From: a virus | Taxonomy: Duplodnaviria > Heunggongvirae > Uroviricota > Caudoviricetes | Reading direction: 5' to 3' (one strand) | DNA length: 64,000 bases | Virus record (IMG/VR): IMGVR_UViG_2576861193_000004 | Location: 42,259-106,258 of that record | In this document: piece after piece, positions 14,551-61,375 of the stretch | Position numbering within the stretch: the stretch's first letter is position 1 | How the letters are laid out: the number at the start of each line of letters is the position of its first letter | Notes under the pieces: model-generated | Seen by the model: only the letters and a program-made list of their open reading frames with translations | What the model was told of the DNA's origin: nothing | Databases searched by the model: none | Translations under genes and position numbers: made by a program

Positions 14551-14570
14551 AGATAATTACTTACCTATCT
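14551..14570. promoter_or_regulatory. motif-2 palindrome
   Basis: agataattacttacctatct between TerL and portal. Confidence 0.45.
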
Positions 14571-15821
14571 AGAACCACCAAGAATAACACGGTTTTTGAC
14601 TGGATACCTACGATGTACTGGATAGCCCAATGCGTCTGCACTATGCTCAATGCCACCTGTCTTATCCATATCTCGTGTTCCAGGCTTGTAGATGACTTTT
14701 TCCAATGAATCAATCAAATGCTTGCACTTCGGATCGATATACAGCCGGATATCTCCAGATGCGGTCATCAGCATTCGGTTAACAGCATTAACACGATCCG
14801 CAATTGGCGGGTGCTTTTTCGAATAATCGACACGTAAGAATCCCTTCTCTTTGAATATGTCGACGTCAGACTCCCCGCGAGCATGTTGGCGATAAGCACC
14901 TGCCGGATCTGGAAATACCGTTATCTGTGATTTCCAGCGCCAGAAGCGTCTCTCAAGCTCATCACAAACCTCTGCCGTGTTAGAGGAAAAGAGCACCAAT
15001 TCATCAATTGCCCATAGCTCACCATTTGGCTGAGGTTGCAAAATTACTGAAGACATCGGGTCAATGTTGAAGTCCTGCCCTACCCATATAGGCAACCGAG
15101 GGTTGAACTGAAGCGGTTTTACATGCACGTTACGATCGAACGGGTAGTAAACGCGCCCGGACATGTTCTCAAAGCTCGCCAGGTACTCCTGAGCGAACGA
15201 TTTCGGGTCCATATCGTTCTTAGCAGCTTCAATTTCCGCCGTAGGCACAAACGGAGAATCGGCAGTTACAAACTGCCAGCTCTTCCACTGTCCCTTTCTT
15301 TGCAGCTCTACGTTCTGGCCTATAGTCCACAGTTTGTGAAATTCCGAGAAGCCTTTTGGCGTACCAATGATCAGTGCACCGCCGCGTGTCGATGAAAGAG
15401 TAGGTCGTAACACCTTGTACCAGGTGTCAGCCTTCATATCCTGAAATTCATCAAGCACTACAAAATGCAACGCTACGCCGCGCAGAGTGTCAGGCTTATC
15501 AGCACCTTTGAGGGCGATCTCCGAACCGTTCTTCAACACGATTGTCATCGTGGTGTCGTTCTTTTTCCTAACCCACTTACGAGGCAGAACTTCCTGTAGA
15601 TCGTCCCACAAAATCTGGCGAGCCATCTGGTAAGTAGGAGCGACATACCAGACCCTTTGCTTTTTTTCCTTTGCCGCCGCACGAATAATAGTGGAGATCG
15701 ACAACCGGGATTTTCCCCAGCGTCGACCAGCACAAACAACTTTAAATCGATGCGGAGACTGGAAGACTTTCATCTGTCCAGAATGCAGTTGCACAAGACT
15801 GAGCGAGGACGGGATTGCCAT
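14565..15821 (-). CDS. terminase large subunit
   Basis: 418 aa; Walker A VVCAGRRWGKS, Walker B-like VVLDEFQD, C-terminal nuclease-like region; start overlaps stop of TerS-like gene. Confidence 0.85.
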   Translation of the reverse strand: MAIPSSLSLVQLHSGQMKVFQSPHRFKVVCAGRRWGKSRLSISTIIRAAAKEKKQRVWYVAPTYQMARQILWDDLQEVLPRKWVRKKNDTTMTIVLKNGSEIALKGADKPDTLRGVALHFVVLDEFQDMKADTWYKVLRPTLSSTRGGALIIGTPKGFSEFHKLWTIGQNVELQRKGQWKSWQFVTADSPFVPTAEIEAAKNDMDPKSFAQEYLASFENMSGRVYYPFDRNVHVKPLQFNPRLPIWVGQDFNIDPMSSVILQPQPNGELWAIDELVLFSSNTAEVCDELERRFWRWKSQITVFPDPAGAYRQHARGESDVDIFKEKGFLRVDYSKKHPPIADRVNAVNRMLMTASGDIRLYIDPKCKHLIDSLEKVIYKPGTRDMDKTGGIEHSADALGYPVHRRYPVKNRVILGGSR

Positions 15822-16453
15822 TATTCGTCCTCCCCTTCACTTCCATCATCTGTCGCATCAAATTCGCTTAGAGCTTCTTCTTCCAACGTCTCAAGCAATT
15901 CGTCATCGATGATTTCAGGCTCGTCGTCTTCCTGACGTAATTTCGCCACCTGGGAAGGCGTAAGCTCACCAAATACCAGGTTCGGAATTTCTTCCTCGTC
16001 ATTTTCCGCATGATCCATGCCCAATGCTTTGGACGAAACTTCAAAGCATTTTGCAAGGGTATTACTGGCTCTCTGTAAGCTCTTGAGAGAATCCTCAATC
16101 GCCCCTAAAGGCCTACCCTCACGTTTGGCCGTAGTGACTTCGACCATCACCATCTGCCCCAACGCATACGCCCAGCCGTCATAACGTGTACGACGTTCTT
16201 CTATCTTTTCCGCACGGGCTTTAGCGCGAAGCTCTGCGTCAGATTTAAGAGACTCACGAACCATCTTCCCAACAGAGTCCGCGCCTTTCTCTAATCCTCG
16301 CTTTTTGAAATGTCTGGAGAGTGTTTCACGACGAATGCCGTACTCTTCCTCCAGCTTTGAGAGTGTATATTCGCCTGACGTCCATTTGGCTTCAGCTTCG
16401 GCCCACTCCGCTGGTGTCAGGCGAGTTTTTACCTCGTCTTTTTCGACCGTCAT
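15821..16453 (-). CDS. terminase small subunit (putative)
   Basis: 210 aa, N-terminal HTH-like segment (TLSKLEEEYGIRRETLSRHFKKRG), acidic C-terminus, translationally coupled to TerL. Confidence 0.5.
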   Translation of the reverse strand: MTVEKDEVKTRLTPAEWAEAEAKWTSGEYTLSKLEEEYGIRRETLSRHFKKRGLEKGADSVGKMVRESLKSDAELRAKARAEKIEERRTRYDGWAYALGQMVMVEVTTAKREGRPLGAIEDSLKSLQRASNTLAKCFEVSSKALGMDHAENDEEEIPNLVFGELTPSQVAKLRQEDDEPEIIDDELLETLEEEALSEFDATDDGSEGEDE

Positions 16454-16492
16454 AGATCCCTCTAAAACACACAGAGCGCGTCCATGCGCTCT

Positions 16493-16508
16493 AAAACAAC
16501 TTGTTTAC
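16493..16508. promoter_or_regulatory. motif-1 palindrome (AAACAAnTTGTTT)
   Basis: aaaacaacttgtttac upstream of TerS-like gene. Confidence 0.45.
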
Positions 16509-16518
16509 TGCATCTGCT

Positions 16519-16534
16519 AACCAACTTGTTTTCT
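16519..16534. promoter_or_regulatory. motif-1 palindrome
   Basis: aaccaacttgttttct. Confidence 0.45.
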
Positions 16535-16649
16535 GGGGTGTTTAATTAGGTCTGGGCATGTCTTATTAAGCCTGCTTCCGTATATATTTAATAAGTTACT
16601 TATTATTTATATATACAGAAGCAGGTCTTTAAATAAGCTCCCAGACCGA

Positions 16650-16916
16650 TTACATCACCAGTAACTTCGCTTTGGCTCGACCTAAAGTGGTTAACCCAAG
16701 AGTTCGGCGGTGATAGCGATTGTCACTGCGTTGGCGCGTATGCCCTTTCTCCACCAGCCCCTTTTTTATCAGAGCGCGAATTGAGAACTGGATACTTTGC
16801 TTGGTTGTCTTGTACGGCAAAACTTCAAGCAATTCGTCCAGATCAAGTAAATGACCTCGCTCATAACCGAGATTGAGCGTTTTGATGATGTCCTTTTGTT
16901 TATCGGTTAACGTCAT
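16650..16916 (-). CDS. small winged-helix DNA-binding protein (putative regulator)
   Basis: 88 aa; helix-turn-helix-like segment TTKQSIQFSIRALIKKGLVEK; last gene of 5-gene operon. Confidence 0.35.
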   Translation of the reverse strand: MTLTDKQKDIIKTLNLGYERGHLLDLDELLEVLPYKTTKQSIQFSIRALIKKGLVEKGHTRQRSDNRYHRRTLGLTTLGRAKAKLLVM

Positions 16917-16925
16917 GGCAAATCC

Positions 16926-17816
16926 TTATGCCGGTAAAGCAATTTCTAACGGTTTATCCAAAGGTTGTTTGTCGAATGCCAGCAGTGGCAGCGTGTCAGG
17001 CAGTCGACGACCAAAGTCAGGGTTTCGGTACACACCATACAACGGAGACGTAAAGCTCAGGTTGTGAATGTCCTTGAGCAGCTTCACAATGCTGGCCTCG
17101 TCCACCAGACTGTCGGCAATGTCCTGAATCGTCGTGCCACGATTCCGCCCAGCTTTTGCCAGGGAACTGTTCTTGTGGTAGTCCGCCACCAGATCACGCA
17201 GTGCACGGCGACGACGAGACTCGCTCATTGCGAACAACTCTTTGACGATCGCCTCGTTATCACCAGGGTCGGAACGGAAATGGCGCTGGAATACACGCAG
17301 TGCACTTTCATAGCTCTTCGGTCGCTCAGGGCGGATGAACTTAAACCCTGCTTTCATGGCGAAGGGATTGTATTTGCTCATCGAGGACTGGATCTCAATG
17401 ATTGGCCGGTCATGCATCCTGCTAACCAGGTTAATCATTCGATAAGAGACGCCTACGCCACGATACTGAGTATCCACAACTGAGCGACTGATCACCGCAA
17501 AGTTGTTATTCACGTACCGACCCCAGTACTGGTTAGCCACGGTGGTATTAGTGGTTGGTTTCAACTTAGGAAACATGCGGTGGCGAGGTGCCAGCAGTAG
17601 TTTCGGGTAAGCCATAACCACGACGCCCACCAGACGGTCATCAAGTTCGCAGCGATAGTAAGTTGGCGCGAAAGGTTTGCCGTCTGTTTTGTAGTGAAGC
17701 GACTTAAGAGCGTGCCAGTCCTCTACAGTTCCCTTTGTGACAGTCATTCGCTCCAGAAAGTCCAGATGACGCGGAAACTCTTCAGGGCGGTAGCGTTTAA
17801 TGATGATGTCCGTCAT
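16926..17816 (-). CDS. GNAT-fold acetyltransferase-like protein with long C-terminal extension
   Basis: 296 aa; acetyl-CoA motif-A-like QYRGVGVS and motif-B-like NPFAMKAGFKF; 4-nt overlap with upstream ATPase gene. Confidence 0.45.
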   Translation of the reverse strand: MTDIIIKRYRPEEFPRHLDFLERMTVTKGTVEDWHALKSLHYKTDGKPFAPTYYRCELDDRLVGVVVMAYPKLLLAPRHRMFPKLKPTTNTTVANQYWGRYVNNNFAVISRSVVDTQYRGVGVSYRMINLVSRMHDRPIIEIQSSMSKYNPFAMKAGFKFIRPERPKSYESALRVFQRHFRSDPGDNEAIVKELFAMSESRRRRALRDLVADYHKNSSLAKAGRNRGTTIQDIADSLVDEASIVKLLKDIHNLSFTSPLYGVYRNPDFGRRLPDTLPLLAFDKQPLDKPLEIALPA

Positions 17817-18478
17817 AAATGAACCTCATCATGACTACCATTGTGATATTCCACCTTCACGCGTTCTTTGTAGTGCTTGGTGATCTGCATATCCGGGCGC
17901 AGCGCGTTCTTCAGGTCTTCGTGAGTCGTCGCCACCATTACCGTCGCACCAACCTTTCGAGCGGCACGCTGGAGGTTAGATGCCACAACCTGAGCGGTTA
18001 CACGGTCTAGAACAGCACCGAACTCGTCAGCAGCCCACACTTTAGCGCCTGACTCAATCAGTTTGGCAATCTTGAGACGATATTTCTGACCGTCTGACAT
18101 TTCAGAAGGCTTGCGAACAAACAGATATGCATCGTTCAGACCAGCCATAGATAACAACCCAAGCGCATCGCTGGTCGTTTTGCCCAACTGATCGATGACG
18201 TTAACCTCATTATCGAAGGTAAAATCATCGATGGAGGCTACAGACAGCCCTTCATCCTTCATCTGTCGTTGCAACTCGCGCAGCACAACGGATTTGCCGG
18301 AACCGGATTGGCCGGTGATGTACACCACATCGCCCTGCTTCACTTCCAGCTCCAGATTGTCGTAAAGCGTCCACTCTTTTTCGTCCAGGCCAAGCCCGAA
18401 CGACTCAGCGATTTCCAACGTGCGCGTGGTTTTATTTACGCGTGTCTGAAACGATACGTTGATGATGTATTTGCTCAT
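17813..18478 (-). CDS. stand-alone ABC-type ATPase
   Basis: 221 aa; Walker A GQSGSGKS, signature-like LSDGQKYR, Walker B VWAADEF, H-loop TTHE; no transmembrane domain. Confidence 0.7.
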   Translation of the reverse strand: MSKYIINVSFQTRVNKTTRTLEIAESFGLGLDEKEWTLYDNLELEVKQGDVVYITGQSGSGKSVVLRELQRQMKDEGLSVASIDDFTFDNEVNVIDQLGKTTSDALGLLSMAGLNDAYLFVRKPSEMSDGQKYRLKIAKLIESGAKVWAADEFGAVLDRVTAQVVASNLQRAARKVGATVMVATTHEDLKNALRPDMQITKHYKERVKVEYHNGSHDEVHL

Positions 18479-19143
18479 GCAGCCATCTCCCCGGAAGAGA
18501 TCTTCTCCGCATATGCCACAAATGCGTCTACACCGCTTTCTCCCGTCATTTCTTCCATATGGGCAAGCAAATCACCAACAACAATGGCAGAGCCAGCAGG
18601 GAGCGTTTTAAAGCCCAATACGTCGACAACACGTACTTCTTCCGCTGCAACTTCATGACTGATCTCGGTGTGTTCATCCTTCTGTCGTTTAGTTTCTTCG
18701 CCAAGATCGATAACTAGCGAGTCGGTGTCCATTTCTTCTGTCATGCTGCCAACGAGAACATTCAACTCACGCTCTTCAAAGCCGAAAACCTCGATATCGT
18801 CCAGAACAAGCGACTCAAGCTCTTTCTGTAGCTTAATTGCATCGTAATCAATGCTGGCAAGTCGGTTATCTTCAAGACGCTTCGCACGAACCTCGTCATC
18901 ACTGAGATCATCGCGAACAATAACCGGTACGCGCTCAAGTCCAGCAAAAATTGCAGCCTCACGGCGGCCGTGGCCAGTAATAATTACGTCGTTCTTATCG
19001 ACCGTAATTGGCTGGTCAAATCCGCGCTTTTTAATGGCTGCGGCCAGATCTCGGATCTGCTGTTCATCATGCTTTTTGGCATTCATCTCATAGGGAATAA
19101 GATCTGCCGGGTCGCGATATACGATTTCAAACTTTTTGGTCAT
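18475..19143 (-). CDS. ParB/Srx-fold (ParB-like nuclease domain) protein
   Basis: Start set at ATG 19141-19143 (TAATG overlap with upstream stop); ParB-box-like IITGHGRREAA. Confidence 0.6.
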   Translation of the reverse strand: MTKKFEIVYRDPADLIPYEMNAKKHDEQQIRDLAAAIKKRGFDQPITVDKNDVIITGHGRREAAIFAGLERVPVIVRDDLSDDEVRAKRLEDNRLASIDYDAIKLQKELESLVLDDIEVFGFEERELNVLVGSMTEEMDTDSLVIDLGEETKRQKDEHTEISHEVAAEEVRVVDVLGFKTLPAGSAIVVGDLLAHMEEMTGESGVDAFVAYAEKISSGEMAA

Positions 19144-19841
19144 TACATACGCTCCTTGTAGTAGTCGACCAGCCACACCAGAGCCTCACCAGCGTTTTCC
19201 ATTTCATTGCCAGTATTAATTGCCTGGTCTTTGATGATGTTTTTTATGGTTTCTGCAACGCGATCTGACGCATCGAAAGTTACTTTGAAGCGCATGGTCT
19301 GATGTTCCGCACCGACACGTTCGGTTTTCTCTCGTTTGTCGGTATCGACAGGCTCATCACTACCACGAGACAACGCCTCCAGTGCTTCAAGGTCGATTGC
19401 CGCCTCTTTTGCTAAAACCATCGAGATTTCGTCGTCATACGGGGCGATTTCAGACAGTTGATAGTCAAGTTCTGACTGAATTTCTTCAATGAAGCGCTGC
19501 AATGCGATTTGGTCGTCTTCACCGTATCGCTCGTTGTCCACCAGTGACATCTGTTTAGCTACGACATCGCTAATTTTGCCCACAGAAAGCACCGGAACCG
19601 TTGAAATTCCTTGCTCAATAGCAGCACGCCAGCGATGTTCGCCGCCGAGGATTTCAAAAAATCCATCTTCAAGTTCACGAGCCAAAATTGGCTTAAAAAA
19701 GCCCAATTTTTCGATAGAACCTTTCAGTTTTTCAAAATTCTGCGCACCAACCGAATTGGTGTTCCAGGTATTCGGGCGAAGGTTGGCAACATCAACCTGC
19801 AAAATCGTGATTTTTACATCCATTTTATTGCTACAATCCAC
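19143..19841 (-). CDS. ParB/Srx-fold (ParB-like nuclease domain) protein
   Basis: 232 aa; ParB box II-like ILGGEHRWRAA; first gene of operon, motif-2 palindrome just upstream. Confidence 0.6.
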   Translation of the reverse strand: MDCSNKMDVKITILQVDVANLRPNTWNTNSVGAQNFEKLKGSIEKLGFFKPILARELEDGFFEILGGEHRWRAAIEQGISTVPVLSVGKISDVVAKQMSLVDNERYGEDDQIALQRFIEEIQSELDYQLSEIAPYDDEISMVLAKEAAIDLEALEALSRGSDEPVDTDKREKTERVGAEHQTMRFKVTFDASDRVAETIKNIIKDQAINTGNEMENAGEALVWLVDYYKERM

Positions 19842-19842
19842 T

Positions 19843-19866
19843 ATGTAATCACTTACTTATTATAAT
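19843..19866. promoter_or_regulatory. motif-2 palindrome
   Basis: atgtaatcacttacttattataat in divergent region between ParB-like operon and helicase. Confidence 0.45.
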
Positions 19867-19905
19867 AGCCAAATAACATACAAAAGGCACTAAGGAAAGA
19901 GGTTT

Positions 19906-21465
19906 ATGACTGTTCGGATTGTATCTAACGCAGTAAATGCACTTATTTCTGGCGCAGATGACAAGGTAAAGCAACTGGTGCAACAGATGTTGAGCTACGA
20001 AGTCGAGACTGGCGACTGGAAGGGCACAAGCACGATGTTCAACTGGAGTAAAAACTCGTTCCCTGCTGGCTTTGCCAAGCCTGTAGCGGCGAACTTGAAC
20101 AAGGCGGGCATCAAATGTGTTCATATCCGCAAAGACAAAGCCCCGGCGCTTGGAAAGCCAAATCCGGCGGTCAACCCATTCCCATACAATCCTGATTATG
20201 CATATCAGGATCAGACTGTGGAAACACTGGTTCGAGAGGGAATGATGATTGCGCAGATCGCTACTGGTGGCGGGAAATCTAATGTTGCCTGCAAAGCAGC
20301 TGCACGTATCGGTCGAATGACATTATTTTTAACAACCCGCTCTGTTCTGATGTTTCAGATGGCCGAAAACTTCCAGAGATCCATCGACTACCGCGCCGAA
20401 AATGGCGAACCGTGGTTAAAAGACCAAAAGGTTGGAGTCATTGGCTCGGGTGAGTTCCAGGTATCACGACATATCAACGTCGCTACAGTTCAAACTCTGG
20501 CAAGTTTCCTTGAAGAACCACCACGCGATGCAACTCCAGATAAGAAGAGCTACCACCTCAAACGTCGGGACTTGGTGAAACGCTTCCTTTCAAGTGTGTC
20601 TCTTCTTATTCTGGAAGAGGCGCATGAGTCTTCAGGCTCTAATTTCTATGACATCGCCAGATTATGTGCGAACGCAGACTATCGCCTGGCGCTTACGGCA
20701 ACGCCGTTCATGAAGGATTCTACGGAAGCCAACATGCGTCTGATGGCAGTGGCCGGGCGAATTGAAATAAAAGTCACGGAAAAGTATCTGATTGATAGAG
20801 GCATTCTGGCAAAGCCATACTTCCTTTATCATAAAGTTGCCTACAAGCCGGACGAGGCCAGAATCAAGGCAGAACTTGCCAACAAACACCTCAATTTTAG
20901 AGTAGGTATGAGCACTGCCTACCAAAAGGCTTATCAGTTGGGGATCGTGTATAATTTGGGACGTAATGAGGCCATTGTTCGCGAAGCATTGCTCTATAAG
21001 CAACATTCTCTCAATTGTATGACTCTGGTTCGTCTTAAACGCCACGGGCAAATCCTGATGGAAATGATGAAAGAGTCCGGCCTTAGAGTTGACTTCATTT
21101 ATGGGGAATCGAACCAGTCGACAAGGCAAGCAAAGCTGAACAGTTTAGCGTCTGGCGACATAGATGTTTTAATAGGCTCGACTATTCTGGATGTCGGTGT
21201 TGATGTGCCAAACGTTGGTGCGGTCATTCTTGCTGGTGGTGGGAAAGCAGAAGTTGAAATGAGACAACGTGTCGGTCGTGGCTTACGAGCCAAGAAGAAT
21301 CAGGCAAACGTGTGTTTTGTCACTGATTTCATTGACATTAGCAACAAATACCTGTTGTCTCACTCTTATGAGCGAAAACACATCATCGACACCACACCTG
21401 GCTTTGCAGAAGGTGTATTGCCTGTTGATGGCGCATTCGATTTTGGAGTTCTGAAACGAGATTAG
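19906..21465 (+). CDS. SF2 DEAD/DEAH-box DNA helicase
   Basis: 519 aa; Walker A ATGGGKS, DEAH-like LEEAHE, TATP motif, QRVGRGLR motif VI; RBS aggaaagagg upstream. Confidence 0.75.
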   Translation: MTVRIVSNAVNALISGADDKVKQLVQQMLSYEVETGDWKGTSTMFNWSKNSFPAGFAKPVAANLNKAGIKCVHIRKDKAPALGKPNPAVNPFPYNPDYAYQDQTVETLVREGMMIAQIATGGGKSNVACKAAARIGRMTLFLTTRSVLMFQMAENFQRSIDYRAENGEPWLKDQKVGVIGSGEFQVSRHINVATVQTLASFLEEPPRDATPDKKSYHLKRRDLVKRFLSSVSLLILEEAHESSGSNFYDIARLCANADYRLALTATPFMKDSTEANMRLMAVAGRIEIKVTEKYLIDRGILAKPYFLYHKVAYKPDEARIKAELANKHLNFRVGMSTAYQKAYQLGIVYNLGRNEAIVREALLYKQHSLNCMTLVRLKRHGQILMEMMKESGLRVDFIYGESNQSTRQAKLNSLASGDIDVLIGSTILDVGVDVPNVGAVILAGGGKAEVEMRQRVGRGLRAKKNQANVCFVTDFIDISNKYLLSHSYERKHIIDTTPGFAEGVLPVDGAFDFGVLKRD

Positions 21466-21467
21466 TT

Positions 21468-21746
21468 ATGAGCGAAAAGAAAACAACTTATTGCCAAGTG
21501 GCATTGTCTGATAAGGCCAATGAAAAACTTGGAAAATTTCAAATAAAACTCAAAGAGAAAAAAATCAAGATGTCTAAGGCTGAAGTTATCAATGCCATTC
21601 TGGAGACGATGACTATGGCTGAATTTGACAAAGTCACATCTGCCGTTGGGGTTTCCGCTAAGACGCGTGAGAAAATCATGCGCATCTATGAGAACTCCAA
21701 TATGACAAAAAAAGATCTAGAGGAAATACTGAGCAGGTTGCCGTAA
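21468..21746 (+). CDS. hypothetical small protein
   Basis: 92 aa ORF starting 3 nt after helicase stop. Confidence 0.3.
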   Translation: MSEKKTTYCQVALSDKANEKLGKFQIKLKEKKIKMSKAEVINAILETMTMAEFDKVTSAVGVSAKTREKIMRIYENSNMTKKDLEEILSRLP

Positions 21747-31597: not shown

Positions 31598-33631
31598 TTA
31601 CTTAACCTGGTGGCCTGGTTTAGCACCAGCATCCGGGCTTAACAGGAAGATATCTTTCCCGCCGGGGCCAGCAGCCATCACCATGCCTTCGGAGATACCG
31701 AAGCGCATTTTACGCGGAGCCAGGTTAGCCACCATAATGGTGTGACGACCAATCAGTGCCTGTGGGTCTGGATAAGCAGAACGGATGCCTGAGAAGACAT
31801 TACGCTTTTCACCACCGAGATCCAGTGTCAGACGCAGCAGTTTGTCAGAACCTTCGACAAACTCCGCGTTTTCAATCAGCGCCACACGCAGGTCAACTTT
31901 GGCGAAGTCGTCAAAGGTGATGGTTTCCTGAATCGGGTCGTCAGCCAGTGGGCCAGTTACCGGTGCAGCTGTGGCTTTCACTTCTTCTTTGGATGCTTCC
32001 ACCAGTGCTTCCACCTGTTTCATATCGATACGGTTATACAGTGCCTTGAACGGATTCACTTTATGGCCCAGCAGCGGTTGCTGGATACCATCCCAGGTCA
32101 GTTCTGTATTCAGGAATGCTTCTGCACGTTCAGTCAGTTTCGGCAGTACCGGTTTCAGGTACGTCATCAGCACGCGGAACAGGTTAATGCCCATAGAGCA
32201 AATCGCCTGCAGGTCGGCATCGCGGCCTTCCTGCTTCGCCACCACCCACGGAGCCTGTTCATCAACATAGCGGTTAGCCAGGTCAGCCAGTGACATGATT
32301 TCACGGATAGCTTTGCCAAATTCGCGGCTTTCCCACGCTTCACCAATCACTTCAGCGGCATCAGTGAAGGTTTTGTACAGTTGCGGGTCAGCCAGTTCGC
32401 TTGCCAGCACGCCGTCAAAACGTTTGTTGATAAAACCTGCATTACGGGAGGCCAGGTTAACCACTTTGTTCACGATATCGGCATTCACGCGCTGAACAAA
32501 ATCTTCCAGGTTGAGATCGATATCATCAATGCGCGAAGAGAGTTTCGCAGTGTAGTAGTAACGCAGGCTGTCGGCGTCAAAATGATTCAGCCAGGTGCTG
32601 GCTTTAATAAAGGTGCCGCGAGACTTGGACATCTTCGCGCCGTTCACCGTCACATAGCCGTGAACAAACAGGTTGGTCGGCTTGCGGAAGTTGCTGCCTT
32701 CCAGCATGGCAGGCCAGAACAGGCTGTGGAAGTAAACGATATCTTTACCGATGAAGTGGTACAGCTCGGCGGTGGAGTCTTTCTTCCAGTATTCGTCGAA
32801 GCTGGTAGTGTCGCCGCGTTTGTCGCACAGATTCTTGAAGGAACCCATGTAGCCAATCGGCGCGTCCAGCCAGACGTAGAAATATTTGCCCGGTGCGTTC
32901 GGAATTTCAAAACCGAAGTACGGCGCATCGCGGGAGATATCCCACTGTTGCAGGCCAGATTCAAACCACTCCTGCATTTTGTTTGCCACCTGCTCCTGCA
33001 ACGCACCGCTGCGGGTCCATGCCTGCAACATTTCGCTGAAAGAGGGCAGATCAAAGAAGAAGTGTTCAGAATCACGCATTACCGGCGTAGCGCCAGAAAC
33101 CACCGATTTCGGCTCGATCAATTCAGTCGGGCTATATGTTGCGCCGCAGACTTCACAGTTATCGCCGTATTGATCTGGCGCTTTACATTTAGGACAGGTG
33201 CCTTTTACAAAACGGTCCGGCAGGAACATGCCTTTTTCCGGGTCGTACAACTGAGAGATAGTGCGGTTTTTAATAAAACCGTTCTCTTTCAGGCGAGTAT
33301 AGATAAGCTCAGACAACTGACGGTTCTCTTCGCTGTGCGTCGAGTGATAGTTGTCATAGCTGATGTTAAAGCCTGCGAAATCAGTCTGGTGTTCCTGACT
33401 CATTTCGCCAATCATCTGCTCCGGTGTGATACCAAGCTGCTGTGCTTTCAGCATGATCGGCGTACCGTGGGCATCGTCGGCACAGATGAAATTAACCTCG
33501 TGGCCGCGCATTCGCTGGTAACGAACCCAGACATCAGCCTGGATGTGCTCCAGCATATGGCCGAGGTGGATTGAGCCGTTAGCGTACGGCAGCGCGCACG
33601 TCACCAGAATTTTCTTCGCGACTTGGGTCAT
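31598..33631 (-). CDS. metG: methionine--tRNA ligase
   Basis: Translation from [26 protein letters not shown] (HIGH motif) through KMSKS to C-terminal tRNA-binding domain ending [10 protein letters not shown]; 677 aa from ATG 33631; ORF track N-terminal extension rejected. Confidence 0.95.
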
Positions 33632-33788
33632 AGTAGGCATTACTTCTTTGTAGTGAAAAGGGGCTTGATAGTAACAAAATGGCCTTATGTCTGCCATGTG
33701 ATAACAGCATTTCTCATAAATGATTAAATGTCGTAGCTGGAGTACACTACAAGGCGACAATTGCGCAAATTAAAATAAAGGAGACGGG

Positions 33789-34889
33789 ATGAGCGAGTCC
33801 AAATCGCCGGATGCCCTGAGAGCAATGGTAGCCGGTACGCTGGCTAATTTTCAGCACCCAACCCTGAAACACAACCTGACTACGCTTAAAGCGTTACACC
33901 ATGTTGCGTTGATGGATGACACACTGCATGTCGAACTAATCATGCCTTTCGTGTGGAATAAGCCTTTTGAAGACCTGAAAGAGCAATGTAGTGGTGATCT
34001 GCTCCGTATCACTGGCGCAAAGGCTATTGACTGGAAGCTGTCGTACAACATTGCCACGCTTAAGCGCGTCAAAAACCAACCAGGCATTAATGGCGTTAAG
34101 AACATTATCGCCGTCAGCTCAGGCAAGGGCGGCGTGGGTAAATCCTCCACGGCGGTAAACCTGGCACTGGCGTTGGCTGCTGAAGGTGCGAAAGTTGGTA
34201 TTTTGGATGCCGATATCTATGGTCCATCAATTCCAACCATGCTGGGCGCGGAAAACCAACGTCCAACCTCACCTGACGGTACTCACATGGCACCTATCAT
34301 GTCTCATGGCCTGGCAACCAACTCTATTGGTTATCTGGTCACCGACGACAATGCAATGGTGTGGCGTGGACCGATGGCCAGCAAGGCGCTGATGCAGATG
34401 TTGCAGGAAACTCTATGGCCTGATCTGGACTATCTCGTTCTCGATATGCCGCCGGGCACTGGTGATATTCAGTTGACGCTGGCGCAGAACATTCCTGTAA
34501 CTGGTGCGGTTGTGGTAACTACGCCGCAAGACATCGCGCTGATCGATGCGAAGAAAGGCATTGTGATGTTCGAAAAAGTCGAAGTGCCGGTACTGGGTAT
34601 CGTCGAAAACATGAGTGTGCATATTTGCAGTAACTGCGGTCATCACGAGCCAATTTTTGGCACCGGTGGCGCACAGAAACTGGCCGAGAAATACAACACG
34701 CAGTTGTTAGGCCAAATGCCACTTCATATCTCTCTTCGTGAAGATCTGGATAACGGAACACCAACCGTTATTAGTCGTCCAGATAGCGAATTTACGGCTA
34801 TTTATCGTGACCTCGCAGATCGCGTTGCTGCCCAAATGTATTGGCAAGGTGAAGTAATACCTGGCGAAATCGCATTCCGCGCAGTGTGA
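33789..34889 (+). CDS. apbC: Fe-S cluster carrier ATPase ApbC/Mrp
   Basis: 366 aa; Walker A SGKGGVGKS, CxxC-type motif CSNCGH; divergent from metG with a 157-bp intergenic region as in E. coli. Confidence 0.9.
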   Translation: MSESKSPDALRAMVAGTLANFQHPTLKHNLTTLKALHHVALMDDTLHVELIMPFVWNKPFEDLKEQCSGDLLRITGAKAIDWKLSYNIATLKRVKNQPGINGVKNIIAVSSGKGGVGKSSTAVNLALALAAEGAKVGILDADIYGPSIPTMLGAENQRPTSPDGTHMAPIMSHGLATNSIGYLVTDDNAMVWRGPMASKALMQMLQETLWPDLDYLVLDMPPGTGDIQLTLAQNIPVTGAVVVTTPQDIALIDAKKGIVMFEKVEVPVLGIVENMSVHICSNCGHHEPIFGTGGAQKLAEKYNTQLLGQMPLHISLREDLDNGTPTVISRPDSEFTAIYRDLADRVAAQMYWQGEVIPGEIAFRAV

Positions 34890-39720: not shown

Positions 39721-42700
39721 ATGACTCATCAAACACACACCATTGCTGAATCCAATAACTTTATCGTCCTTGATAAGTACATCAAAGCTGAGCAAACAAG
39801 CGACAGCTACCAGAGCGAATCGGACCTGGAACGTGAACTGATTCAGGACCTGCGGAATCAGGGTTATGAATTTATTTCCGTAAAATCACAGTCGGCAATG
39901 CTGTCCAATGTTCGGGAACAGCTTCAGAGCCTCAATGGTGTGATGTTTAATGACAGCGAGTGGCGGCGCTTCACGGAGCAGTATCTGGACAATCCCAGCG
40001 ATGGTATTCTGGATAAGACCCGTAAAATCCATATCGACTATATCTGCGACTTTATTTTTGACGACGGGCGTCTTGAGAACATCTATCTGATCGATAAAAA
40101 GAATCTCATGCGCAACAAAGTGCAGATTATCCAGCAGTTTGAACAGGCAGGTTCTCATGCTAACCGTTATGACGTCACGATCCTGGTTAATGGCTTGCCT
40201 CTGGTGCAAATCGAACTGAAAAAGCGCGGCGTGGCGATTCGTGAGGCTTTCAACCAGATACATCGTTACAGCAAAGAGAGTTTTAACAGCGAAAATTCCC
40301 TGTTTAAGTATCTGCAACTGTTTGTCATTTCTAACGGCACCGATACCCGTTATTTTGCCAACACCACAAAGCGCGATAAAAACAGTTTTGACTTCACCAT
40401 GAACTGGGCGAAATCAGACAACACGCTGATTAAAGACCTCAAAGACTTTACCGCTACCTTTTTCCAGAAACATACCCTGCTTAATGTTCTGGTGAACTAC
40501 AGCGTGTTTGACAGTAGTCAGACGCTACTGGTGATGCGACCGTACCAGATTGCAGCTACCGAACGGATCTTATGGAAAATCAACAGCTCCTATAAAGCGA
40601 AAAACTGGTCTAACCCCGAAAGCGGTGGCTTTATCTGGCACACCACTGGTTCCGGTAAAACACTGACCAGCTTTAAAGCCGCGCGTCTGGCAACTGAACT
40701 GGACTTTATTGATAAAGTCTTCTTCGTGGTCGACAGGAAAGACCTCGATTACCAGACCATGAAGGAATATCAGCGTTTTTCGCCAGACAGCGTCAACGGC
40801 TCGGAAAATACCGCAGGTCTTAAACGAAATCTGGATAAGGACGATAACAAAATTATCGTCACCACTATTCAGAAACTTAATAACCTGATGAAAGCAGAAA
40901 GCGACCTGCCTGTATACAATCAGCAAGTGGTGTTTATATTTGATGAATGCCACCGCAGCCAGTTTGGAGAAGCGCAGAAAAACCTGAAGAAGAAATTCAA
41001 ACGCTATTATCAGTTTGGTTTTACCGGCACCCCTATTTTCCCGGAAAATGCCTTAGGCTCAGAAACGACCGCCAGCGTATTTGGTCGTGAATTGCATTCG
41101 TATGTAATTACCGATGCGATTCGTGACGAAAAAGTGCTCAAATTCAAGGTGGACTACAACGATGTGCGGCCACAGTTTAAGTCTTTAGAGACAGAAACTG
41201 ACGAGAAAAAACTGAGTGCGGCTGAAAATCAGCAGGCGTTTCTTCATCCCATGCGTATTCAGGAAATCACGCAATATATCCTGAACAACTTCCGCCAGAA
41301 GACTCACCGTACTTACCCCGGCTCCAAAGGTTTTAATGCCATGCTGGCAGTAAGCAGCGTGGATGCCGCGAAAGCCTATTACGCGACGTTTAAACGGTTA
41401 CAAGAGGAAGCCGCTAATAAATCTGCTACCTATAAACCACTGCGTGTTGCGACAATCTTCTCCTTTGCCGCCAATGAAGAACAAAATGCCATTGGTGAAA
41501 TTTCCGATGAAACTTTTGATACCAGCGCAATGGACAGCAGTGCTAAAGAGTTTCTTGACGCTGCAATTCGTGAGTATAACAGCTATTTTAAAACTAACTT
41601 CAGCACCGACAGTAACGGTTTTCAGAACTACTATCGTGATTTAGCCCAACGGGTTAAAAATCAGGATATCGATCTGTTAATTGTCGTTGGGATGTTTTTA
41701 ACCGGCTTCGACGCTCCAACATTGAACACGCTATTCGTCGATAAAAACTTGCGTTTTCACGGCCTGATGCAGGCATTCTCCCGTACCAACCGCATTTATG
41801 ACGCTACTAAAACCTTCGGTAACATCGTCACTTTTCGGGATCTGGAACGCTCAACCATTGATGCCATAACGCTGTTTGGTGATAAAAATACTAAAAATGT
41901 GGTGTTAGAAAAGAGTTATGCAGAGTATATGGAAGGCTTTACTGATGCTGCTACAGGTGAAGCTAAACGCGGCTTTATGGCAGTAGTTTCAGAACTGGAA
42001 CAACGGTTCCCTGACCCTGCCAGTATTGAAAGTGAAAAAGAGAAGAAAGACTTCGTTAAACTGTTTGGCGAATACCTGCGTGCCGAGAACATCCTGCAAA
42101 ACTATGATGAATTTGCCACGCTGAAAGCCCTGCAACAAATCGATCTTAGCGATCCTGTTGCGGTAGAAAAATTCAAAGAAGAACATTATGTGGATGATGA
42201 AAAGTTCGCTGAATTGCAAACGATTCGTCTCCCTGCTGAACGCAAGATTCAGGATTATCGTTCTGCCTATAACGATATTCGTGACTGGCAGCGCCGCGAG
42301 AAAGAAGCTGATAAAAAAGAAAAATCAACCACTGACTGGGATGACGTGGTTTTTGAGGTCGATTTGCTGAAGTCTCAGGAAATAAACCTGGATTATATCC
42401 TTGGACTGATTTTCGAACACAACAGACAAAATAAAGGCAAGGGCGAAATGATCGAAGAGGTCAAACGCTTAATTCGTTCAAGCCTGGGGAACCGGGCGAA
42501 AGAGGGCCTGGTGGTCGATTTTATTCAGCAAACGAACCTGGATGATTTACCAGACAAAGCCAGCATCATTGACGCGTTCTTTACCTTTGCTCAACACGAA
42601 CAGCTACGTGAAGCAGAAGCGTTGATTAAAGAAGAAAATCTCAATGAAGAGGCGGCGAAACGCTATATTCGCACGTCTTTAAAACGCGAATACGCCACCG

Positions 42701-51089: not shown

Positions 51090-51734
51090 TCAGTGGAAGG
51101 TCACTCGTCCTGTTATACGGCTCTCGATGTTTTCAGTGGCTCTTTCCAGCACACGCAATACCGATCTGGCTCGCGCCTCAACCGTGCGGCACTTTTCAGA
51201 GATAATGAAAACCTGCAAATCGCCGGTATGGGGAAGGGCACTAATTTTCGTCAGCTCGCCACACATAAGTGCATCGATGCGAGCAACATAGAGACGGTCA
51301 AGCGATCCTCGCTGGGGACGCGCGAGATCTTTGCCGGAAAGATCAACGCCCGGGCGAAGACCCGCTATAGCATTAAAGTTGGAAATGGCCGCTTTGTGGC
51401 AAAACTGCTCAATGTCGAGAGCCAGCTCGATGCAGCGGTCTTCGTTGGTCTGGCCGACCAGGTCAAGCGTATAAGCCATGACATCGGCTGGCGTGCGGTC
51501 GATGACAAAACCTTCAACGCCGCGGGTGATCATCTCGATGTGTCTGGCAATCTCCATCTGAACCTGAAGACGCTCGTAAAGGGGCAAACGCTCGCCAACC
51601 TTCACCCCCAGACTGCTCATCAGCTTGCCAACACCGGCATCCACATACGGAATGCCATAGTGCGCATCGATGTACCTTGCCAGGGTTGTTTTCCCACTGC
51701 CCTGTGCGCCAGTGATTCCAATCCGGTAATCCAT
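51090..51734 (-). CDS. P-loop nucleotide kinase-like protein (dNMP kinase-like)
   Basis: Walker A IGITGAQGSGKTTL; 214 aa; sits in nucleotide-metabolism cluster. Confidence 0.45.
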   Translation of the reverse strand: MDYRIGITGAQGSGKTTLARYIDAHYGIPYVDAGVGKLMSSLGVKVGERLPLYERLQVQMEIARHIEMITRGVEGFVIDRTPADVMAYTLDLVGQTNEDRCIELALDIEQFCHKAAISNFNAIAGLRPGVDLSGKDLARPQRGSLDRLYVARIDALMCGELTKISALPHTGDLQVFIISEKCRTVEARARSVLRVLERATENIESRITGRVTFH

Positions 51735-60730: not shown

Positions 60731-61375
60731 TTAAAACGTCTCTGAGGGCTTCTGACGCGCTCTGCTGATGTCTATTACCCCAGCTTTTGGACGAGGGTCT
60801 ACAAGATTCAACTCTTCAGCACTGTGATACTCCGTGTCGAACTCCCGATCGACATGGCGAATGTAAATGGCTGTCAGAAGGCTGTTATCATTCAGAAAGT
60901 GTCCGTAAGATTTGCGAATTACTTCGCCAACCTTCTCAATCTTCTCTCCGCCCATGCAGAGATGGTTAAATCGGCTGTGTTTCCGCAGCATTTCATCCAC
61001 CGGGCCTGAGTAGACCTTATCAACTCTCCCGAACCGGATGATATTTCCGGTATCAGCTTCAACCAGACAAACGAGTTTGCCAGGTTCGACACGATCTCGC
61101 CAAGTGACACCAGAGCGCAGTGTGTTGAAGTAGGGAGCATCCAATCCGATGATCGGTTTACGAAATGCTAGTAGTGGCACGTAACGTATGCAGCTGTTTA
61201 GGTGGAAATGCGCACCGGCGTCGTGGAGTTTAAGCCGGGTTTCGTTAATCGGGCATTTCGAAGCAATGCCGCAAAGGTCGCAGAGCAACTTCTGTTTGTT
61301 CAGACTAGTGTTTGATTCAATGGTGTAGGAGCCATCTTCAAGACGGCGAACCCAGCGCGTGCGTTTAAGATCCAT
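60731..61375 (-). CDS. hypothetical protein
   Basis: 214 aa; Cys pair CDLCGIASKC. Confidence 0.3.
   Translation of the reverse strand: MDLKRTRWVRRLEDGSYTIESNTSLNKQKLLCDLCGIASKCPINETRLKLHDAGAHFHLNSCIRYVPLLAFRKPIIGLDAPYFNTLRSGVTWRDRVEPGKLVCLVEADTGNIIRFGRVDKVYSGPVDEMLRKHSRFNHLCMGGEKIEKVGEVIRKSYGHFLNDNSLLTAIYIRHVDREFDTEYHSAEELNLVDPRPKAGVIDISRARQKPSETF

Follow-up and report, generated by a model that had tools for sequence, protein, structure and literature searches.

What is the function of a tightly packed operon that encodes two ParB-like proteins, a stand-alone ATP-binding cassette (ABC) ATPase, a GNAT-fold acyltransferase-like protein and a small, probably winged helix-turn-helix (wHTH) DNA-binding protein directly beside the packaging genes of a tailed phage? 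The operon lies in a 64,000-nucleotide stretch of viral DNA, referred to here as the window (positions 42,259 to 106,258 of IMG/VR record IMGVR_UViG_2576861193_000004). A megablast search with window positions 16400-20000 matched 12 phage records, the closest being Escherichia phages CMS-2020a, PhiR41_1 and Cyrano (pLF82) at 98-99% identity, followed by SSU5 at 85% and Klebsiella SSU5-like phage-plasmids at about 80%. Judged by these matches, the window is part of an Escherichia coli SSU5-like phage-plasmid. Our combined findings are most economically read as identifying the operon as the SSU5-lineage version of a predicted ABC-GNAT DNA-acylation system. More specifically, we propose, with a probability of about 0.5, that the five genes form a late, ParB-assisted and ATP-driven module that acylates phage DNA and thereby protects it against restriction.

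The five genes are co-directional on the minus strand and lie upstream of the small terminase (terS), large terminase (terL) and portal genes (Table 1). Three of their junctions overlap, as read directly on the strand: at TAATG (19143) the ParB1 stop and the ParB2 start share 1 nt, and ATGA joins ParB2 to the ABC gene (18475-18478) and the ABC gene to the GNAT gene (17813-17816) with overlaps of 4 nt each. The GNAT and wHTH genes are separated by a gap of 9 nt that has AAGGA inside it. The open reading frames (ORFs), their coordinates and the overlaps agree with those given in an earlier account made from the nucleotides and translations only (the sequence-only reading). Its domain calls were also correct, with Pfam finding ParB_N in ParB1 and ParB2 and ABC_tran in the ATPase, and with the GNAT fold recovered by structure modelling and Foldseek; the Pfam search of the GNAT-like and wHTH proteins matched no domain. 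Among the motifs it listed, GGEHRWRAA, GHGRREAA, GQSGSGKS, VWAADEF and QYRGVGVS are present, but the ABC signature is MSDGQKYR and not LSDGQKYR. All five proteins fall into large phage families of the PHROGs collection (ParB1 phrog_723, ParB2 phrog_930, ABC phrog_293, GNAT phrog_886 and wHTH phrog_900), and the terminase region (14565-16453) matches Pfam Terminase_6N and Terminase_6C as well as phrog_867, phrog_10250 and phrog_2.

By homology, the ABC and GNAT genes are the split version of one fused ABC-GNAT protein family (COG2401). The ABC ATPase (Pfam ABC_tran, 5.8e-13) has intact Walker A (GQSGSGKS), signature (MSDGQKYR), Walker B (VWAADEF) and H-loop (TTHED) motifs. Homologues of the GNAT protein carry the Joint Genome Institute label “ABC-type ATPase with predicted acetyltransferase domain”, which is the name of COG2401. 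An exhaustive profile search with the GNAT family retrieved 891 representatives, many of them 445-500 amino acids long with the GNAT-like region at about 200-480 and, by Pfam, an ABC domain in the N-terminal half. It was this search that revealed the fused forms; a second homology search, made with the alignment, listed close family members only. In hhalign comparisons with the fused family, the window ABC protein aligned over residues 7-221 (44% identity, E 5e-72) and the window GNAT family over residues 209-469 (probability 100%, E 1e-40). Matches to the fused form in genome collections came from Bathyarchaeia, Nitrososphaeria and Planctomycetota. Variants of the fused family carry an intein, a TFIIB-like tail or a whole family-B DNA polymerase (PolB) in front, with a 1260-amino-acid PolB-ABC-GNAT fusion present on 12 contigs. 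Since some relatives are fused to a DNA polymerase in this manner, the family's own architecture supports DNA as the object of modification.

Further features of these variants were apparent. The PolB fusions, of about 1260-1310 amino acids, occur in some metagenomic viruses (P0261, P0337 and P0235) with a RecA gene adjoining (loci L079, L097, L120 and L121), and the intein of relative P0222 has a LAGLIDADG domain. We also considered an ABC transporter. No permease or other membrane protein gene was found in or adjoining the operon, the neighbours being ParB, GNAT, wHTH and terminase genes, and the ATPase has no fused permease; the transporter reading was therefore rejected.

DNA acylation by an ABC-coupled GNAT has already been predicted computationally by the Aravind laboratory, and the prediction is not new here. 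Iyer et al. 2021 (Viruses 13:63) predict that a GNAT coupled to an ABC ATPase attaches an uncharacterised acyl modification to a base of DNA, with Tenacibaculum phage pT24 as their named example; where that paper takes up the prediction, it credits it to Iyer, Zhang, Burroughs & Aravind 2013. The window proteins belong to the same family, as they align end to end with the fused form, and the published example fits the same profile (pT24 gp038 matches the fused-family hidden Markov model at 6e-40), is also among the tblastn matches and likewise comes from a phage. Unlike the published system, the one described here is encoded by two genes, split but translationally coupled, with two ParB paralogues and a wHTH gene on its flanks, and it forms a core block in a lineage of siphoviruses and phage-plasmids of 100-120 kb.

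Members of the fused family are found in numerous bacterial and archaeal tailed viruses that are not related to one another, in most cases next to a ParB-like gene, the large terminase gene or both. A fused representative used as query matched 78 phage records. In Gordonia phage Axumite (Sourvirus), genes 1 to 4 encode a ParB-like protein, an ABC-GNAT protein, a Formyl_trans_N protein and the terminase, the third gene (L070 1805-2452) being annotated as a tRNA methyltransferase. Streptococcus pyogenes prophage 315.4 has ParB (of the ParB2 type, 4.5e-25), ABC, a small ORF, ASCH, TerL and portal in that order, Leptospira phage LE4 has a ParB-like gp14, ABC-GNAT gp15 and TerL gp19, and Planctomycetota prophages carry ABC-GNAT, ParB and TerL in order. 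Archaeal-type viral contigs with a tail module have TerL no more than two genes away from the fused gene in 48 of 80 cases, the fused gene at the contig end in 27 and an ASCH-like gene nearby in 8. In the Mu-like Burkholderia phage phiE255, ABC-GNAT (gp29) and a formyltransferase (gp30; L073 5044-5658) come after the tail-fibre genes, the position that mom occupies in Mu. This recurrence of ABC-GNAT beside a ParB-like gene and terminase in unrelated phages supports a role in DNA modification, as does its pairing with a formyltransferase at mom's place in phiE255.

The neighbouring genes also hint at the chemistry. The presence of a formyltransferase directly after ABC-GNAT in both Gordonia Sourvirus and phiE255 suggests that the modification may proceed in two steps. 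ASCH-domain neighbours were found in S. pyogenes prophages (L071 4981-5358, Pfam 1e-5) and weakly in archaeal-type contigs (L153 7304-7663, 9e-4); the “ASCH” annotation of the Cyrano gene at window positions 60731-61375 was not reproduced with Pfam and is not used here. Since ASCH proteins such as YqfB hydrolyse N4-acylcytosines, we speculate that the formyltransferase and ASCH neighbours could reflect an amino-containing acyl group or N4-acylcytosine chemistry.

The ParB-like proteins also point towards DNA modification. ParB1, of the GGEHRWRAA type, matches ParB_N at 3.4e-13 and phrog_723 at 2.7e-79, and the best sequence matches of its N-domain in the PDB are the N-domains of CTP-dependent chromosomal ParB/Spo0J/Noc proteins, with GGEHRWRAA replacing GERRxRA. 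ParB2, of the GHGRREAA type (ParB_N 1.3e-8; phrog_930 2.6e-112), is more divergent from solved ParBs. Its residues ~1-150 match the N-terminal ParB module of ParB-DNA-methyltransferase fusions (phrog_498 1e-31; PADLOC MTase_II 3.7e-17), and this affinity of its N-domain to methyltransferase modules is a further argument for DNA modification. The two proteins are paralogous (28% identity, E 4e-8) and align confidently to solved ParBs in the N-domain only; in the sequence comparisons no ParB helix-turn-helix or dimerisation domain was detected. The structure model of ParB1, built on an alignment of homologues of at least 85% identity, had a predicted local distance difference test score (pLDDT) of 37. 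There is precedent for such partners: phage ParB-like proteins that have no DNA-binding domain are required for DNA thymidine oxidation by the clade E 5mYOX thymidine dioxygenases. In these systems, as in DpdA/DpdB and the ParB-methyltransferase fusions, a protein with a ParB/Srx N-domain adjoins a nucleic-acid-modifying enzyme, often near the terminase. The system in the window differs in that the enzyme is a GNAT with an ABC ATPase and that there are two ParB paralogues.

The fifth protein belongs to a family without assigned function (phrog_900, 1.9e-45) and has weak matches to archaeal Sta1/Lrs14 wHTH regulators and to CARF-associated wHTH proteins. Its gene directly follows the GNAT gene in loci L003-L005, L007 and L008. 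In Rhizobium phage RHEph10 (L006) phmmer found no wHTH match, and a small gene is annotated after the GNAT gene there.

For the GNAT protein we relied on structure prediction. A confident AlphaFold model based on an alignment of 35 sequences (A1) had a pLDDT of 87 and a predicted template-modelling (TM) score of 0.79. Foldseek matched the model to many generic GNATs and, among them, to the three that acylate nucleobases, NAT10 at rank 5, Mom at rank 8 and TmcA at rank 14, all with low TM-scores (~0.3 for NAT10 and TmcA), and a BFVD fold search gave weak generic GNAT matches with Mom at rank 2; the model thus indicates that the GNAT fold is present. PDB sequence searches with the protein returned no match. 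Residues H41, Y42, R111, R119, E141 and Y260 and the glycine of the coenzyme A-type loop are invariant across the family. Like the intact ABC motifs, these invariant residues count in favour of the DNA-modification reading, and the GNAT enzyme does not look degenerate. The 130-residue C-terminal extension described in that reading is better viewed as a region of ~90 helical residues past the core strands (~165-255), followed by a conserved terminal strand motif, YG(V/A)YxNPD, both common to the fused ABC-GNAT family.

Two known kinds of enzyme invite comparison. Mom is a GNAT that moves glycine from Gly-tRNAGly to N6 of adenine in double-stranded DNA and has an essential helix-turn-helix-like insertion. 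The suggestion that the window protein has a GNAT fold as in Mu Mom holds at the level of fold but not of sequence; moreover, Mom works alone, without an ATPase or ParB partner, and the com/mom control is absent here. TmcA and NAT10, which make N4-acetylcytidine in RNA, follow the same logic as that proposed here, in that the GNAT acylates the amine of a nucleobase and is coupled to a P-loop ATPase. Both enzymes are in the Foldseek list (TM ~0.33), and the ASCH family, which adjoins some ABC-GNAT genes, includes N4-acylcytosine amidohydrolases. However, TmcA uses a helicase-like ATPase module and belongs to tRNA metabolism, whereas here the ATPase is an ABC domain in a ParB and terminase context, and Pfam detected no TmcA-type DUF1726, Helicase_2 or tRNA-binding tail in the window proteins.

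We assessed how far the block is conserved. The order helicase (divergent), ParB1, ParB2, ABC, zero to three small inserts, GNAT, small protein, TerS-like, TerL and portal is kept in a 3.3-Mb metagenome contig, an Ectothiorhodospira contig, Pseudomonas phage nickie, RHEph10, Stenotrophomonas phage BUCTxx99 and Xanthomonas phage JGB6. All nine genes are present in 68 of the 80 closest IMG/VR loci, and the remaining loci all fit a cut-off by the contig end. As the block is found in these loci and is retained in other bacterial orders down to a protein identity of about 41-44%, the arrangement is, on this comparative evidence, not a chance juxtaposition. For the GNAT protein, identity to these relatives is 34-44%. 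Rather than the defence or anti-defence island suggested in the sequence-only reading, the block is a core, syntenic part of the phage lineage in all relatives examined, including Nickievirus, which further supports DNA modification. A defence system was likewise rejected, the PADLOC matches being only to generic ATPase and ParB-methyltransferase entries.

The ABC-GNAT junction occurs in three alleles. The ABC and GNAT genes are separated by 0 nt, as in the window, in 19 loci, by ~260 nt in 39 and by ~540-550 nt in 22. This junction is an insertion hotspot, with the ~260 nt corresponding to an 84-residue ORF in SSU5 and the ~550 nt to a 183-residue ORF in pJN2-26. In distant relatives up to three small genes occupy it, including DUF2829, Phage_gp49_66 and RyR-domain genes.

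When would the operon be expressed? In a published RNA-seq table for LF82 lysogens, the five genes (CYRAN_119-123) have values of 5.0, 9.5, 9.2, 8.0 and 7.8 relative to a prophage median of 9.8. The terS and terL genes are likewise at background (7.1 and 8.4), while the divergent UvsW-like helicase gene (19906-21465) and the next small gene (21468-21746) stand above it at 46 and 114. The five-gene operon is thus silent in lysogens and, since its expression is at background together with that of the terminase genes, we consider it an operon of the lytic cycle.

These findings can be combined into a mechanism. The GNAT-fold protein would transfer an acyl group (acetyl, another acyl or aminoacyl) to an exocyclic base amine in replicated phage DNA. 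Its obligate partner, the ABC ATPase, to which it is fused in most relatives, would bind and hydrolyse ATP and in this way take hold of the DNA or make the base accessible to the GNAT. The ParB-like proteins may be NTP-dependent DNA-loading partners and the wHTH protein a DNA-binding partner, which together would recruit the enzyme to DNA or activate it there, on the model of the ParB partners of phage thymidine dioxygenases; the ParB-like DpdB is thought to act in this way with DpdA. Expression with the late genes would place modification before packaging, and the modified DNA, once packaged, would then resist host restriction. The gene structure, the folds, the intact motifs, the homology to the fused family, the recurring ParB and terminase neighbours and the silence in lysogens are observed, whereas DNA as the substrate, the chemistry, the parts played by ParB1, ParB2 and the wHTH protein and the gain against restriction are inferred. 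A base-modification or anti-restriction module was among the hypotheses of the sequence-only reading. It is the one favoured by the split ABC-GNAT family, the ParB partner, the terminase adjacency and the Aravind-laboratory prediction, though unproven, and the published precedents, namely the ParB partner of 5mYOX, Mom as a GNAT acylating double-stranded DNA and the prediction of Iyer et al. 2021, lend it further support. A broader proposal, to which we give somewhat less than even odds, is that SSU5-like phage-plasmids and many other bacterial and archaeal tailed viruses with ABC-GNAT package DNA that contains an N-acyl base not described to date. An ATP-driven GNAT, loaded onto the DNA by ParB-like clamps, would install this base after replication and just ahead of packaging. 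Candidate bases would be N4-acetyl or N4-acyl cytosine, or an aminoacylated purine that is further processed by the formyltransferase in some phages.

Several observations weigh against the acylation proposal. The GNAT fold match is generic, with most matches being to protein and small-amine acetyltransferases, and the protein has no sequence similarity to Mu Mom (hhalign probability 0.3% with alignment A1 and 1.5% with A2). The archaeal-type relatives are mostly without an adjoining ParB gene, so that ParB is not obligatory. In the literature searched we found no experimental work on any ABC-GNAT protein and no report of a modified base in SSU5-like phages, and the proposal itself fixes neither the acyl donor nor the target base. 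Finally, adjacency to the terminase and a position at genome or contig ends are equally expected of a packaging accessory.

Such a packaging accessory is the main rival, although we consider it unlikely. The ParB-like and wHTH proteins would recognise or process a packaging site at the nearby palindrome, and ABC-GNAT would assist or regulate the terminase; acetylation of a head or packaging protein, or of a counter-ion of the DNA, would be one way to do so. The module lies immediately upstream of terS-terL and adjoins TerL in many unrelated viruses, and the gene is found not only at the ends of the 27 viral contigs but also where the SSU5, Cyrano and Gordonia records physically end. In the set of the 80 closest IMG/VR loci, moreover, ParB1, ParB2, wHTH and TerS are the more variable proteins (median identity 87-90%) and ABC, GNAT and TerL are highly conserved (96-99%). 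On the other hand, a separate TerS-like gene (phrog_867) exists, a terminator-like hairpin stands between the operon and terS, and neither the PolB fusions nor the position after the tail-fibre genes in phiE255 are packaging contexts. We know of no terminase system that employs an ABC ATPase or a GNAT.

Next in plausibility, and also improbable, is a role in host take-over or anti-defence, in which the target of the GNAT would be a host protein, a tRNA or a signal derived from nucleotides, and the ParB-like proteins would attack host DNA or nucleotide pools through nuclease or NTPase activity. Phage GNATs with host RNA polymerase as their substrate have been described (Rac; Iyer et al. 2021, Viruses 13:63), both nucleases and NTPases occur among ParB/Srx domains, and the preponderance of protein and small-amine acetyltransferases among the fold matches would fit. 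Nonetheless, the operon groups by expression and position with the late packaging genes and not with early genes, DNA is indicated as the target by the obligate coupling with an ABC ATPase, by the ParB gene that recurs next to it and by the fusions to PolB, and the ASCH and formyltransferase neighbours suit nucleic-acid base chemistry better.

Plasmid partition, with ParB1 and ParB2 binding a centromere of the prophage-plasmid and the ABC ATPase as motor, is hardly credible and was rejected: the genes are named as ParB partition proteins by NCBI and in the literature on phage-plasmids, the N-domain of ParB1 resembles true ParB CTPases and shares with ParABS an arginine-containing NTP-binding motif, and the element is a low-copy plasmid (~5.5 copies in LF82), but the operon is silent in the plasmid state, the block is conserved in the non-plasmid, apparently virulent Nickievirus, for which no temperate behaviour has been reported, the same module adjoins terminases in integrated prophages, only the ParB N-domain is detectable, and there is no ParA-type partition NTPase, the ABC domain being the sole ATPase of the operon. 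The sequence-only reading was right that the combination is not a canonical ParAB system, terminase accessory or toxin-antitoxin pair, but its alternative of an atypical partition system for the plasmid state is contradicted by these findings. The window also encodes a “MinD” (33789-34889; “septum site-determining protein” in Cyrano), which is an Mrp/ApbC-like ATPase beside a methionyl-tRNA synthetase gene. This pair (31598-34889) looks host-derived and, among phage records, is confined to the E. coli subgroup of SSU5-like elements.

The block belongs to a kind already predicted in the literature, and its value, which we regard as moderate, lies in a tractable E. coli K-12 model and in the correction of annotations. 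Since PhiR41_1 infects E. coli K-12 MG1655, the DNA-acylation prediction is directly testable. If it holds, natural DNA modifications would gain a new chemical class, in which an ABC ATPase drives the acylation of bases, and the operon would be a second case, after the thymidine dioxygenases, of ParB-like proteins partnering DNA-modifying enzymes. It would also correct a widespread mis-annotation, as the labels “ParB partition protein” and “ABC transporter” serve as plasmid markers in phage-plasmid calling. The class would be established in a group of clinical relevance, since phage-plasmids of the SSU5, pHCM2 and pKpn types are frequent in Escherichia, Klebsiella and Salmonella, where some bear resistance genes; how well these elements pass restriction barriers matters for their spread.

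Table 1 Genes and non-coding elements of the operon and the adjoining terminase region (window coordinates)
Feature	Position	Strand	Details
ParB1	19143-19841	-	GTG start at 19841; the Cyrano annotation uses ATG at 19823, giving 226 amino acids
ParB2	18475-19143	-	ATG start; 222 amino acids
ABC ATPase, stand-alone	17813-18478	-	nucleotide-binding domain only; 221 amino acids
GNAT-fold acyltransferase-like protein	16926-17816	-	296 amino acids
Small probable wHTH DNA-binding protein	16650-16916	-	last operon gene; 88 amino acids
Putative small terminase, terS	15821-16453	-	phrog_867
Large terminase, terL	14565-15821	-	followed by the portal gene
Divergent intergenic region	19842-19905		64 bp, between ParB1 and the UvsW-like helicase gene
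Imperfect palindrome	16549-16647		~100 bp, centred on AATAAGTAACTTATT; between operon and terS
Terminator-like GC-rich hairpin with T-rich tail	16472-16493	-	found by consensus scan; just upstream of terS

Non-coding elements flank the block on both sides. In the divergent intergenic region, positions 19858-19867 form a 10-bp palindrome of A and T only, TATTATAATA, which overlaps a TATAAT hexamer. This is the palindrome that the sequence-only reading placed at the head of the operon as its motif 2; it is present, but its palindromy is not preserved in SSU5 or pJN2-26, so that the claim is only weakly confirmed. Exact copies of the 11-mer ATAATAAGTAA stand at the two ends of the operon, both on the minus strand (19853-19863 and 16596-16606), and six sites with no more than one mismatch were found in the window compared with 0.9 expected. 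The other four (13039, 47853, 54961 and 60446) include some that are intergenic and promoter-like, and the core TAAGTAAGT is conserved in SSU5 and pJN2-26. We consider these elements of the intergenic region a putative promoter.

At the other end of the operon, the imperfect palindrome has a DNA fold of -27.4 kcal/mol (z = -9.0), and both pJN2-26 and PhiR41_1 conserve it. Close to its centre the linear records of SSU5 and Cyrano come to an end, with both matches stopping at ~16588, and the palindrome may therefore be a virion DNA end or packaging site. The terminator-like hairpin (RNA fold -18.5 kcal/mol, z = -2.9) suggests that the operon and the terminase genes are separate or antitermination-controlled transcription units.

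A further gene in the window carries an ABC label. The product of 51090-51734, a homologue of CYRAN_75 that is annotated in Cyrano as “ABC transporter ATP-binding protein”, is an AAA_28/kinase-like P-loop protein and not ABC_tran, and it lies among nucleotide-metabolism genes.

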